A DNA stretch of 29,482 bases from Candidatus Hodarchaeota archaeon (GCA_048886645.1 JBHLKN010000001.1:30732-60213), one strand, 5' to 3'. Counted from the stretch's first letter, positions 9,861-14,312 are shown. Numbers and translations are program-made. Notes: generated by a model from the letters alone, not told the origin.

Positions 9861-10307
9861 ATGTTTGTAAGACGTTGGCTCAGTCCAAGCATGCTCAACG
9901 TAACACTCTTCATCACCACCATGATGCTCCTAACACAAATACCAACTACATATTACGCCCTCCACATCCTAGAACTAAACGCCCAAGAAAACTGGCCAGT
10001 CTACACCCTACTACCCCTCGGAACAGTCCTCATACTAACAATCTCCACAATAAACCTCTCCGAAATGCTAATACTAAAAATAAAAGGCTTCGTAGACGAA
10101 AAAGAAGCAATCCTAATAACCATAATGATAACCACCATATTCTTCTACATCGGATTCTTCCTCATCGGAACAGAAATACTACAAGAAATAAACTTCATAC
10201 AAGACCGAAGAAACGTATACAAACTAGGCATCTACTACCTAACAGGAGTAACACTCGCCCTAACAACAAACAACACCATATACTCACGCCTAGAAAAAAA
10301 ACACTAA
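9861..10307 (+). CDS. Small integral membrane protein (about 4 TM), unknown function
   Basis: 148 aa with four hydrophobic stretches separated by charged loops. AAGGTG lies 8 nt upstream of the ATG. Caveat: this stretch has few G or T, so stop codons are rare and a second frame (9851..10375) is also open. Confidence 0.5.
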   Translation: MFVRRWLSPSMLNVTLFITTMMLLTQIPTTYYALHILELNAQENWPVYTLLPLGTVLILTISTINLSEMLILKIKGFVDEKEAILITIMITTIFFYIGFFLIGTEILQEINFIQDRRNVYKLGIYYLTGVTLALTTNNTIYSRLEKKH

Positions 10308-10383
10308 AAAAAAAGAAAAAAAATAAAAACAACACAAAACAAATAAAACAAAAACAACCAAAAAATAAAAACTAGAAAAAACG

Positions 10384-10396
10384 CCGAGGTAGCTTT
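10384..10396 (+). repeat. Left copy of a 13-bp direct repeat, GCCGAGGTAGCTT (orphan copy of tRNA nt 1-13)
   Basis: Exact match to 12538-12550, the first 13 nt of the tRNA. Sits exactly at the junction between the A/C-rich and T/G-rich tracts and is followed by T8. Confidence 0.6.
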
Positions 10397-10689
10397 TTTT
10401 TCTTCGTTTTTTATGTTGGGGTGGGTTTCCGCTGTGTTTTTTTGTTTTTCTCTGCGGAGATCTGTTTTTGTTTTTTGCTGTGTTGGTTAAAATATGTTTT
10501 TTCGGTGTTTCTTTTCAGGGGGGTTAAATGGGATTACACTGGTTTTTGGTGGTTGAATTTGTGGTTTTTTTACTTTTTCTTTTTTTTATTCGTTTGAAAG
10601 CCTAATATATTCACTTTTGTCCTCCTCTCCATAAAGCTTATATATGGCATATATTATATGTATGATCTATATTTTATGGGGTAAAAAAG

Positions 10690-12552
10690 ATGCGAAGAAC
10701 AGTAACAGAAGGGGGACTTTTGACCTTTCAAGGCAAACTTTTAGAGGTAAAAGAAGAAGACAGTGTTAAGATTGATGATCTTATGAGGCGGTTTCAATCT
10801 GCAAAAAGAACTGCTTTCAAAAGGCTTGTAGAAGGTGGAAATAAGAATAAAGGTTTAGAAAAAGAGCTTGTTGAGAACTTTATTCTAAATTCGGAATATG
10901 CAAGATCTGCTATCTCTGATGCGAAAGCGATAATGGATAGTCAAAGGGAACTATTACCTTACTATATTGCGAATTATGAGGGGAAGATAAGAAAGAGTAA
11001 GAAAAAGTTGGAAAAATGTCGTTCTGAGCTGAAGCAAAAAGGTCTATTCTCAAGAATAAAGAAGTATGAGGAGAAAAGAGATCTTCTAAAACTGTATTTA
11101 GAGAATGAAACCATACCTAGGGTGATATTTGGAGGGAGAAGGAACTTTGAGCTTTTCATAAAGGGAGAGATAACGAGGGAAGAATGGAGAGCGTTAAGAA
11201 CAAACCAAGTTTACAGTAAAGGCAGAGCCGTTGGAAAGGGTAATAATAACTTAAGGGTAACTTACGAAGGAGATGGTGAAAGAAATCAGTTCTACTTATG
11301 GATAAACTATCCTTCTAAAAAAGTGGGAAAGTGGGGGAGTAAACAGAAGTATAAACTTTTTGTTCCAGAACCTTTCAAGCCATACATTATAAAAAGCTTG
11401 GAGACTGAGGAAAAAGAGTTTGGAAAAAAGAAAAAGTCTAAGACTTGTACTAAAAAAGCGCACACAGTAAGGGTAATTCGCAGGAAAGGAGGGGAATATT
11501 ATGTTTTCATAACTGTGGAGGTTTTTTGTCCAGAAGAAGCTTTATCGAACGCCAAAGAAAAAGGTTTGTTGGGTTTAGATGTTAACACTAAGGGTATAGG
11601 GGCAGCAATAGTTCTCCCCAACGGTAACCTAAGAGCGCACAGATGGTTTCCATGCCACGAACTTCTATATGTAAGAAACGAAAAACGCTCGCACTTGATA
11701 GGAAATCTTTTGGTTAAGGTTTTCAGGTGGGCTAAAGGTTTCGGTGTAAACACTGTTGTTTCTGAGAGTTTTAACAGGTTTAAACGAGATCATGATACCT
11801 ATGGGAAGTTTAACCGTGCAACGCATAACTTCTGTAAGGAGAAGATGGTTAGAACCATTAAAAGTAGAGCAGTAAAAGAGAACTTTGTTCACATAGAAGT
11901 TTTCCCAGCTTACAGCTCCATAATAGGAGCAATAAAATATCAAAAAATATATGGCTTGAGTACTCATGAGGCAGCCGCTTTTATAATAGGCAGAAGGGGT
12001 TTAGGATACAACAAGGAAAGGATTCCGAAAGAATTTTCCGAGAGCTTAAAGCCAGAGGGGCGTCGCCGATGGAAGGATGACGTTGATCCTTTGGCAAGCA
12101 TCTGCCGCCAGTGGGGCGGTCTATGGAAACAAGTTTCGAAGATAAAAAACAGTTTCTTCGAAACAACAAGGGAGATACCTTTAAATCATCGCAAATTCAT
12201 AAGGCATCTCCTTATTAAAGCAAGTGGCGCTGACAGCGCGCTTCAGCTCGCGCTCTCCTACCTAAAGAAAAAGGGAGAGACGGAAGTAGAGGCAACCAAA
12301 CCGTTGTCGAGGTTCAGATCCTACCTCGACAATCTAATAAGTTTGGTCCTCGAAAACGCTGAAGAACTACGTGAGAATCGTAGCACTAGACGCAAACAGT
12401 CGCTATGCATCGTCGTAGACTTTATAAACAATAAAGGATTTTCTACCTTCACAAATCTACGATCTGAAGAAAACACCCCCAAAGGATCAAAGTCTCTAAA
12501 ACGGCATATAAGGGCTTTCAAGGGCGGTTTTCGAGCGGCCGAGGTAGCTTAG
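10690..12552 (+). CDS. TnpB/Cas12-superfamily-like RuvC-fold protein; atypical (no Zn-ribbon, degenerate RuvC-III, long C-terminal extension)
   Basis: 620 aa. RuvC-I-like GLLGLDVNTKGIGAAIV (D297, nt 11578-80). RuvC-II-like NTVVSESFNRF (E359, nt 11764-66). VFPAYSSIIG corresponds to the PAYTSQ box of TnpB. STHEAAAFIIGRRGLG corresponds to the D.NAA.NI..RG box, with T/H-E in place of the catalytic D. There is no CxxC pair between these boxes. TTATATAT at 10638-45 and GGGGT precede the ATG. Confidence 0.6.
   Translation: MRRTVTEGGLLTFQGKLLEVKEEDSVKIDDLMRRFQSAKRTAFKRLVEGGNKNKGLEKELVENFILNSEYARSAISDAKAIMDSQRELLPYYIANYEGKIRKSKKKLEKCRSELKQKGLFSRIKKYEEKRDLLKLYLENETIPRVIFGGRRNFELFIKGEITREEWRALRTNQVYSKGRAVGKGNNNLRVTYEGDGERNQFYLWINYPSKKVGKWGSKQKYKLFVPEPFKPYIIKSLETEEKEFGKKKKSKTCTKKAHTVRVIRRKGGEYYVFITVEVFCPEEALSNAKEKGLLGLDVNTKGIGAAIVLPNGNLRAHRWFPCHELLYVRNEKRSHLIGNLLVKVFRWAKGFGVNTVVSESFNRFKRDHDTYGKFNRATHNFCKEKMVRTIKSRAVKENFVHIEVFPAYSSIIGAIKYQKIYGLSTHEAAAFIIGRRGLGYNKERIPKEFSESLKPEGRRRWKDDVDPLASICRQWGGLWKQVSKIKNSFFETTREIPLNHRKFIRHLLIKASGADSALQLALSYLKKKGETEVEATKPLSRFRSYLDNLISLVLENAEELRENRSTRRKQSLCIVVDFINNKGFSTFTNLRSEENTPKGSKSLKRHIRAFKGGFRAAEVA
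12538..12550 (+). repeat. Right copy of the 13-bp direct repeat (functional tRNA nt 1-13)
   Basis: Identical to 10384-10396. Also forms the last four sense codons and part of the TAG stop of the 620-aa ORF (GCC GAG GTA GCT TAG). Confidence 0.6.
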
Positions 12553-12651
12553 CCCGGGAGCAGTATAGGTGGCATAATACGACACTTTCTCTCCGATAGC
12601 GCTGGACTGAAGATCCAGTTGTCGCTGGTTCAAATCCGGCCCTCGGCGCCA
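12538..12651 (+). tRNA. tRNA-Phe (anticodon GAA), CCA-encoded, with a non-canonical ~37-39 nt intron in the D-arm
   Basis: Acceptor stem GCCGAGG (12538-44) / CCTCGGC (12641-47). T-arm GCTGG-TTCAAAT-CCGGC (12624-40). Anticodon arm CTGGA-CTGAAGA-TCCAG (12602-18) with GAA at 12609-11 and G37. Variable loop TTGTC. D-arm 5' part GCTT-AGCCCGGGA-G, then an insert at about 12561-12597, then AGC-G26. G73 followed by CCA. Confidence 0.85.
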
Positions 12652-12729
12652 CTCCCACTTAAACTCTAAATTCTGTCTATTTATCATTAAAGAAGAAAAT
12701 TTTTAAACCAAGAAAACTGTTATGTTATC

Positions 12730-13028: not shown

Positions 13029-13091
13029 TATTAATATACTCTTTATGTTTTTTGTTTTCTTACATTTTTCTTTTTGGTGGGTCGGTGTGGT

Positions 13092-14312
13092 ATGGCAAAT
13101 GTGATAGATAATCTAGATGAGATGTTCGAAAATTATTTGTCAGGGTCGAAAATTTTTAAAAATCGTGATACGATGCGTCCTTCTTATGTGCCAAGGAAGC
13201 TTCCTCATAGAACGGAGAAGGCTTTGGATTTGGGGAGAATTTTAGCACCGGCTTTAAGGGGTGAAATTCCTTCTAATGCTTTATTATATGGGAAGCCTGG
13301 TACTGGTAAGACCGCGGTAACTCAGTATGTTCTTCAAAAAATGAATGCTAAATGTGTCGAGGCAGGGATACCTCTCACCTCTACTTATTTTAATTGTCAA
13401 CTTGTTGATACAAATTATCGTGTTTTAACTTCTCTTTGTCAGGAAATTGAAGTAGAAGTGCCTATAACTGGGCTTCCAACTGTCGAAGTGTATTCACGGT
13501 TTACCAGAGCTTTGGATGCTAAGGATTTGCAGATGATAATAATACTTGATGAGATTGATGCTCTTGTAAAGAAGAGTGGTAGTGAGGTTCTTTATAGTTT
13601 GACGAGGATTAATACGGATCTTAAAAGAGGGAAGGTGAGTCTTGTTGGTATCTCGAATGATACGCGTTTCAAGGAGCTTTTGGATCCTCGTGTTTTGAGT
13701 AGTTTAAGTGAGGAGGAGATTGTTTTTCCGCCTTATAACGCCACAGAACTTAAAGATATTCTGCGGGAACGTGCTTTAATAAGTTTTAATGAGGGAGTAA
13801 TTGATGATGGCGTGATCGGTCTATGTGCGGCTTTAGCTGCAAAAGAGCATGGTGATGCAAGGAGGGCTCTTGACTTATTAAGGGTTGCAGGGGAGCTTGC
13901 GGAGAGATCAGGCTCGCAAAAAGTAATAGGAGATCATGTAAAAGAGGCTCAACGGGTTATAGAGCGAAACATGGTTGAAGAGGTCATAAAAACTCTTCCT
14001 CTCCAATCAAAGCTCGTGCTTTTCAGCATATACTTACTTGAAAAAGAAAACCTTCATGATATTTACACGGGCCAACTTTACAACACGTATCATGAAGTTG
14101 CCCGTGAAATGCGGGTGGAGTCTTTGACTCAAAGAAGAATTAGTGATCTCATAAATGAGCTGGACATGATGGGTATTATCAATGCATTAGTGATCTCTCG
14201 TGGGAGGGGTGGTCGTACACGGAAAATAAATCTGAGCATTCCTATACGCCAGTTAAAATCGTTCATTGAACATGATATCAGGTTTTCCGCTTATCTAGAT
14301 CTCATACCTTGA
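13092..14312 (+). CDS. cdc6: Orc1/Cdc6 replication initiator (AAA+ plus C-terminal winged helix)
   Basis: Contains LPHRTEKALDLGRIL, Walker A LLYGKPGTGKTA, Walker B MIIILDEIDAL, sensor GISND and GDARRALDLLRVAGE, plus a wH tail. ATG at 13092 preceded by GGTG. The track's TTG start at 13074 is less likely. Confidence 0.93.
   Translation: MANVIDNLDEMFENYLSGSKIFKNRDTMRPSYVPRKLPHRTEKALDLGRILAPALRGEIPSNALLYGKPGTGKTAVTQYVLQKMNAKCVEAGIPLTSTYFNCQLVDTNYRVLTSLCQEIEVEVPITGLPTVEVYSRFTRALDAKDLQMIIILDEIDALVKKSGSEVLYSLTRINTDLKRGKVSLVGISNDTRFKELLDPRVLSSLSEEEIVFPPYNATELKDILRERALISFNEGVIDDGVIGLCAALAAKEHGDARRALDLLRVAGELAERSGSQKVIGDHVKEAQRVIERNMVEEVIKTLPLQSKLVLFSIYLLEKENLHDIYTGQLYNTYHEVAREMRVESLTQRRISDLINELDMMGIINALVISRGRGGRTRKINLSIPIRQLKSFIEHDIRFSAYLDLIP

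Follow-up and report, generated by a model that had tools for sequence, protein, structure and literature searches.

The 2.1-kb stretch located upstream of a tRNA-Phe(GAA) gene in the genome of an Asgard-like archaeon is one of the many copies of a mobile element. We consider it probable, at about 75%, that the element represents a TnpB-encoding, TnpA-less family related to IS200/IS605, which inserts at the 5′ boundary of tRNA genes and duplicates ~11–14 bp there, leaving the tRNA intact. The copy was found in a stretch of 29,482 nucleotides from Candidatus Hodarchaeota archaeon (this whole stretch is referred to as the window hereafter). The host genome, G000, consists of 143 contigs and 1.93 Mb, and is 87% complete. 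The features of the locus are collected in Table 1.

Table 1. Features at the tRNA-Phe locus, in positions of the window
Feature	Position	Strand	Remarks
A-rich host flank directly 5′ of the left repeat	10283..10382	+	
Left direct repeat	10383..10395	+	target-derived copy of tRNA-Phe nt 1–13
Left end, T/G-rich leader	10396..10689	+	conserved from copy to copy, also in cargo-carrying and internally shortened ones
TnpB-related protein, 620 aa	10690..12552	+	PF27229 (SSO2105_N); RuvC-like motifs; predicted fold
Right end, ~200 nt	12318..12537	+	mean 83% identity; kept in TnpB-less copies
Right direct repeat	12538..12550	+	nt 1–13 of the intact tRNA-Phe(GAA)
tRNA-Phe(GAA) gene	12538..12652 (end approximate)	+	Rfam tRNA match; 77 nt mature, CCA encoded

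Repeat pair and tRNA-Phe gene at the window locus

The element, which extends over ~2.1 kb (10396–12537), is bracketed by an exact pair of the 13-mer GCCGAGGTAGCTT. This pair is real and non-random: such a repeat pair occurred in 0 of 100 dinucleotide-preserving shuffles. A preliminary description of this DNA had reported the same pair with the left copy at 10384–96; the pair stands, and the left copy is moved by one base, to 10383–10395. The surroundings of the left copy agree with that description. An A-rich tract precedes the copy, and a run of Ts and the T/G-rich leader follow it, so that it lies at a change of composition. Only this leader and one ORF are found between the repeats. A chance match or an assembly artefact is hardly credible as the source of this arrangement: repeats do break assemblies, and contigs do end at the ends of the element, but no shuffle gave such a pair, and copies that are independent of each other, as well as separate assemblies from two or three genomes, have junctions of the same structure.

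The A-rich tract was also considered as a part of the element and was rejected as such, because it is a dispersed host repeat present at non-element sites. Its copies occur on four further contigs of G000 (C45, C17, C19, and C24) and in relatives, and the tract breaks public contig assemblies.

The right repeat opens a tRNA-Phe gene, whose 7-bp acceptor stem is perfectly paired (GCCGAGG with CCTCGGC). The D-arm region of the gene is interrupted by an intron-like insert of 37 nt (12561–12597). A public contig from another study (a mangrove metagenome) is without these 37 nt, and the presence of the insert thus varies among strains. Introns of tRNA genes are reported to have been repeatedly gained in Asgard archaea, and the strain-variable insert fits this report (bioRxiv 10.64898/2026.10.13.758758). 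In its default setting, ARAGORN found no tRNAs in the whole genome G000, and the tRNA-Phe gene was also missed, because the tRNAs of this genome are intron-rich; tRNA detection in G000 needed the intron search of the program. With the intron search, the gene was called Arg(tct) with a strained fold. This identity was rejected, since ARAGORN returned a canonical 77-nt tRNA-Phe(GAA) once the 37 nt were removed. The earlier assignment of the gene to tRNA-Phe, and that of the right copy to its nt 1–13, is therefore correct, the Rfam tRNA match being in agreement. At ~420 bp downstream, the tRNA gene is followed by a gene for Orc1/Cdc6 (13074–14312), and this locus may be the neighbourhood of a replication origin.

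Copies of the element and their conserved ends

The segment had been proposed to be mobile, with the suggestion that further copies of it and their flanks be searched for in the genome. Such copies were found, those that could be followed being flanked by tRNA 5′ ends, and they make up a many-copy family in G000 and in a genome of the same genus, G001. At least seven copies or fragments are present in G000, and more than 10 further copies in G001. In G000, C121 and C59 hold full copies, and C81 and C75 hold partial ones; fragments of the right end alone occur on C59, C105, and C119, and leader fragments are also present. In the full copies, the TnpB-like ORF is the sole protein-coding gene between the conserved ends, as in TnpB-only (IS1341-like) elements. 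Several contigs of G000 (C62 with tRNA-Cys(GCA), C81, and C119 with tRNA-Arg) end at tRNA 5′ ends or hold right-end fragments; these are probably further copies of the element broken by assembly.

Shorter derivatives were also found, and they are MITE-like and non-autonomous. One of them (L026/L033, on C3 of G001) is an internally shortened copy of ~460 nt with no coding gene, located at a tRNA 5′ end. Others (L027 and L028), with lengths of ~330–1000 nt, lack TnpB or carry a truncated one, and they too are located at tRNA 5′ ends. The left duplication is present in the shortened copies L026, L027, and L028. In another copy (L032, C259 of G001, 943–1476), a nitroreductase-family gene occupies the place of TnpB between the element ends; this copy is inserted at tRNA-Arg(TCT) and has a left copy of the tRNA 5′ end. 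The orthologous site in G000 (on C75) shows a different, left-end-only arrangement. Since the TnpB-less copies keep both ends and are still located at tRNA 5′ ends, it is the ends that constitute the mobile unit.

Judged from its conservation, the right end is the best candidate for the region encoding the ωRNA, the guide RNA of TnpB. Its retention in the TnpB-less copies is as expected for such a region. The consensus fold of the right end obtained with RNAalifold has weak support from compensatory changes or covariation, and no ωRNA or IS605 RNA model of Rfam matched the right end.

Junctions at tRNA 5′ ends and the duplicated target

We examined the junctions of the copies in G000, G001, and one more metagenome-assembled genome (MAG). 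One feature is that all of the 15 readable right ends lead straight into nt 1 of a tRNA or a tRNA-like sequence, and that at every one of these junctions the element and the tRNA are in the same orientation. In three copies, the sequence next to the right end is a tRNA 5′ half or fragment. The types of tRNA at the right ends include Phe(GAA), Phe(AAA), Ala(AGC), Arg(TCT), Arg(TCG), Gln(TTG), Thr(TGT), and Cys(GCA). Another feature is that the left ends of 8–9 copies are preceded by a copy, 10–14 nt long, of the 5′ end of the neighbouring tRNA of the same element, with 0–2 mismatches. The arrangement noticed at the window locus, a copy of nt 1–13 to the left of the element and a whole tRNA downstream, is accordingly the rule for the family in both genomes. 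The last feature is that the right copies always pair perfectly with the 3′ acceptor strand of their own tRNA, as exemplified by tRNA-Ala on C121.

The origin of the left copy can be addressed by its specificity. The preliminary description had supposed that the element carries its own copy of nt 1–13. A related explanation is that a fixed motif resembling a tRNA 5′ end forms the left end of the element, which is inserted directly upstream of tRNAs with no duplication. All the left motifs do resemble the 5′ ends of tRNA acceptor/D-stems (GCNGGGGTAG-like), and several of them match many GCGGGGGTAGCC-type tRNAs equally well. However, the left copy in the window fits its own tRNA alone: it is identical to this tRNA, including the rare A5, and has 2–4 mismatches in 11 positions with the tRNAs of the other copies. 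The left copies of L032 and L028 likewise find their best match in their own tRNA. These copy-specific matches already largely refute the fixed motif, which is also at odds with the empty allele described below, and we regard it as very improbable; for the same reason, the element does not seem to carry a fixed copy of nt 1–13 of its own. Since the left copies are tRNA-specific and decaying and the right copies are cognate, both copies are derived from the target, in the manner of a target-site duplication. After insertion, the left copies are under no constraint and decay.

A direct view of the duplication was given by a comparison of empty and filled sites, which had been proposed for the window locus and was made at a sister locus, the one site resolved. 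The tRNA-Phe(AAA) site is empty in G000 (C1:15951), and the orthologous site is filled in G001 (C189) and in a MAG (L040), the upstream flanks of the empty and filled sites being 94.6% identical. The empty allele has a single GCCGAGG-type 14-mer, GCGGGGGTGGCCGA, and the filled alleles have two, one behind the host flank and one at the start of the tRNA, directly behind the right end. This shows that insertion at tRNA-Phe(AAA) duplicated the first 14 nt of the tRNA (14 bp). At the window locus itself, the contigs of both flanks end near the element in G001. The Logan contigs of four public runs, one of them possibly the source run, break at the element ends, and none of them joins the upstream flank to the tRNA or contains a circle junction; they have no bearing on excision. 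By inspection, no consistent motif resembling a TAM (transposon-adjacent motif, the short sequence that TnpB needs beside its target) was found upstream of the duplicated segments (AAAAC, TAGGC, GATTT, TTTAA, and TTAAA).

Several filled sites are common to G000 and G001, and the insertions there thus predate the split of the two; many of the element copies could be old. This is in keeping with another explanation, namely, that the duplication was made once, at a founding insertion, and was then inherited, while TnpB promoted homing into the same empty site in relatives. TnpB is in fact known to promote the homing of IS605 elements. Nonetheless, homing into the same site cannot account for at least seven different tRNA types, and the left copies differ in that each is specific to the tRNA beside it, which means that duplications were made at many different sites. 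We therefore consider a single founding duplication unlikely.

The TnpB-like protein, a proposed route of insertion and known systems

The 620-aa protein had no match in older Pfam, and the TnpB-related models of NCBIfam (TIGR01765/TIGR01766) matched it below the cut-off. The 64 homologs obtained by sequence search all belong to PF27229 (SSO2105_N). The closest of them, from Asgard MAGs, are 76–89% identical, and more distant ones (~40% identical) are annotated as IS605 OrfB/TnpB-related. RuvC-like motifs were recognized in the alignment: GLDVN (D297), VVSE (E359), and HEAAA (426–430), the last within xHEAAAxVIxRRGxG (426–440). The motif residues are intact in the protein and conserved in the alignment. 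The protein, like its family, differs from the usual TnpB in that the TNB zinc-finger was not found in the alignment, in that HEAAA replaces the third RuvC motif, and in that it has a long C-terminal extension. This C-terminal part of ~170 aa (449–620) is predicted to be disordered and is poorly conserved among the homologs. An AlphaFold model (27 homologs, pLDDT 72) gave Cas12f, Cas12k, and ISFba1 TnpB as the top Foldseek matches, with E values from 1e-9 to 1e-4. TnpB is the ancestor of Cas12. The likeness to Cas12f and Cas12k, which are CRISPR effectors of type V that arose from TnpB, lies in the predicted fold of an RNA-guided RuvC nuclease; unlike them, the protein belongs to a transposon, and no CRISPR array or Cas genes were seen in the window. 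Based on the motifs and the predicted model, we take the protein to be an RNA-guided RuvC nuclease of the TnpB family, in a distinct subfamily; a nuclease of the TnpB/OrfB type, as in the IS200/IS605 family, is thus found in the element. A search of the literature for SSO2105 found no description of it. Distant PF27229 homologs in Parageobacillus and Altiarchaeales have no adjoining tRNAs and are without the right end of the element, so that the tRNA targeting belongs to the Asgard subfamily and not to the protein family as a whole.

In the window copy, the C-terminal part reads into the tRNA. The stop codon of the ORF (12550–12552) includes the T that ends the right repeat, and the last five codons are therefore derived from the repeat. 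The preliminary description had made the same point, and it holds for this copy; it does not extend to the element, since in the other copies the ORF stops 3–72 nt before the tRNA.

As for the enzyme responsible for the insertion, no Y1 TnpA (PF01797) was found in the element or in G000 (87% complete), neither encoded nor as a mobilizing partner. Neither a tyrosine nor a serine recombinase is encoded by the element, as the preliminary description had stated; no resolvase-family (serine) recombinase was found in G000, and the sole tyrosine recombinase of this genome is XerA (L034). The att-site logic proposed for the repeats, which would imply an integrase and a recombination core, is not upheld by this result. 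G001 has a classical IS605 element with a Y1 TnpA and an ISDra2-like TnpB (L035/L036, on C70 and C117), whose DNA is unrelated to the ends of the tRNA-targeting family. No enzyme known to make an 11–14-bp target duplication was found in the element or in G000. IS200/IS605 elements insert 3′ of a motif of 4–5 nt with no target duplication, and hence the duplication of 11–14 bp is unexplained by what is known of them.

The repeats may alternatively be regarded as the product of an integrase supplied in trans; this enzyme would act at tRNA 5′ ends on an att-like core of ~13 bp, one copy of which would be carried by a circular form of the element. The direct repeats bracket the element exactly, like attL and attR, and tRNA genes are the classic targets of integration in archaea (PMC6563490). 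Archaeal integrative elements mostly use the 3′ ends of tRNA genes, and use of the 5′ end is rare (PMC6563490); occasional integration at a 5′ end, such as that of CalSub-E1, is cited in the same article. On the other hand, this explanation leads one to expect hybrid cores of donor and target, whereas decaying left copies and cognate right copies are seen. Cores of 11–14 bp would be short for archaeal tRNA att sites, which have a median of 17 bp in thaumarchaea and 29–69 bp in crenarchaea (PMC6563490). With no integrase in the element and XerA alone in G000, we judge an integrase in trans to be quite improbable.

The junctions are best explained as follows. Insertion at the tRNA 5′ boundary duplicates the first ~11–14 bp of the target tRNA, and the element comes to lie between the two copies. 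The left copy is kept beside the upstream flank, and an intact, functional tRNA is formed by the right copy together with the remainder of the gene. As the tRNA is not destroyed, the cost to the host is low, and tRNA genes offer many conserved sites at which insertion is safe. The route that we favour, although it is unproven, is that a guide RNA originates from the right end, whose flank is always a tRNA 5′ end. The TnpB-like RuvC nuclease might help to break tRNA genes in their 5′ region, or might make use of breaks that occur there. Repair might then copy the element by way of the short stretches of tRNA-5′ homology on its two sides, and the duplication would result from this copying. The element could then be called an RNA-guided "tRNA-homing" transposon, in which a guide transcribed from the right end into the adjoining tRNA 5′ end would direct TnpB to cut the 5′ region of other tRNA genes and repair would copy the element there. 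The homology arms would be the 11–14-nt left copy of the tRNA 5′ end and, on the right, the tRNA itself. Such an element could spread to non-allelic tRNA sites with no transposase, and the duplication would arise from repair. We put this forward tentatively, as a possibility that may well prove wrong; a trans-acting recombinase or transposase, and homing after a founding duplication, are weaker than this leading guide-RNA hypothesis.

The family shares parts of its makeup with several known systems. It resembles the TnpB-only members of IS200/IS605 (IS1341-like, e.g., the ISC-type archaeal TnpB elements of Sulfolobus) in the gene for a TnpB-like RuvC nuclease, the long conserved right end (the ωRNA region in those elements), the non-autonomous derivatives that keep both ends, and the many copies per genome. 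It is unlike the classic IS200/IS605 elements, the roles of whose TnpA and TnpB have been described (PMC8612924), in that it targets tRNA 5′ ends and has a duplication of the tRNA start of 11–14 bp per insertion; in place of the insertion with no target-site duplication that characterizes that family, a target-derived duplication of 10–14 bp of the tRNA 5′ end is found. With the archaeal tRNA integrative elements (SSV-type, pNOB8-type, and thaumarchaeal iMGEs), it has in common the tRNA targets, the direct repeats at the boundaries, and the restored tRNA. It differs from the elements of archaeal tyrosine integrases in encoding no tyrosine or serine integrase, in its small size of 2.1 kb with a TnpB gene, and in its short, target-specific repeats of 11–14 bp at the tRNA 5′ end, where those elements mostly have 3′ cores (PMC6563490). 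The fixed position relative to the tRNA start, the preserved tRNA function, and the target-site duplications recall the eukaryotic retrotransposons Ty3, Ty1, and DRE/TRE5 (of Dictyostelium), which insert next to tRNA genes; unlike these, it is a DNA element of an archaeal host, with a TnpB-like nuclease and no reverse transcriptase. Ty3, Ty1, and DRE/TRE5 are retroelements that find their targets via Pol III transcription factors. In the literature on TnpB with tRNAs or duplications, we found no description of TnpB elements that target tRNA 5′ ends.

If this reading is true, the family consists of TnpB-type transposons whose target, the start of the tRNA gene, is both precise and benign, the tRNA being restored. 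IS200/IS605 elements need TnpA; here, none is found, and yet a target-specific duplication accompanies each insertion. This raises the question of whether a TnpB-only element can enter new sites by means of its own guide RNA, with the target set by the flanking tRNA. The conserved 5′ end of tRNA genes would then be a natural, multi-site "safe harbour" in an Asgard-like archaeon.
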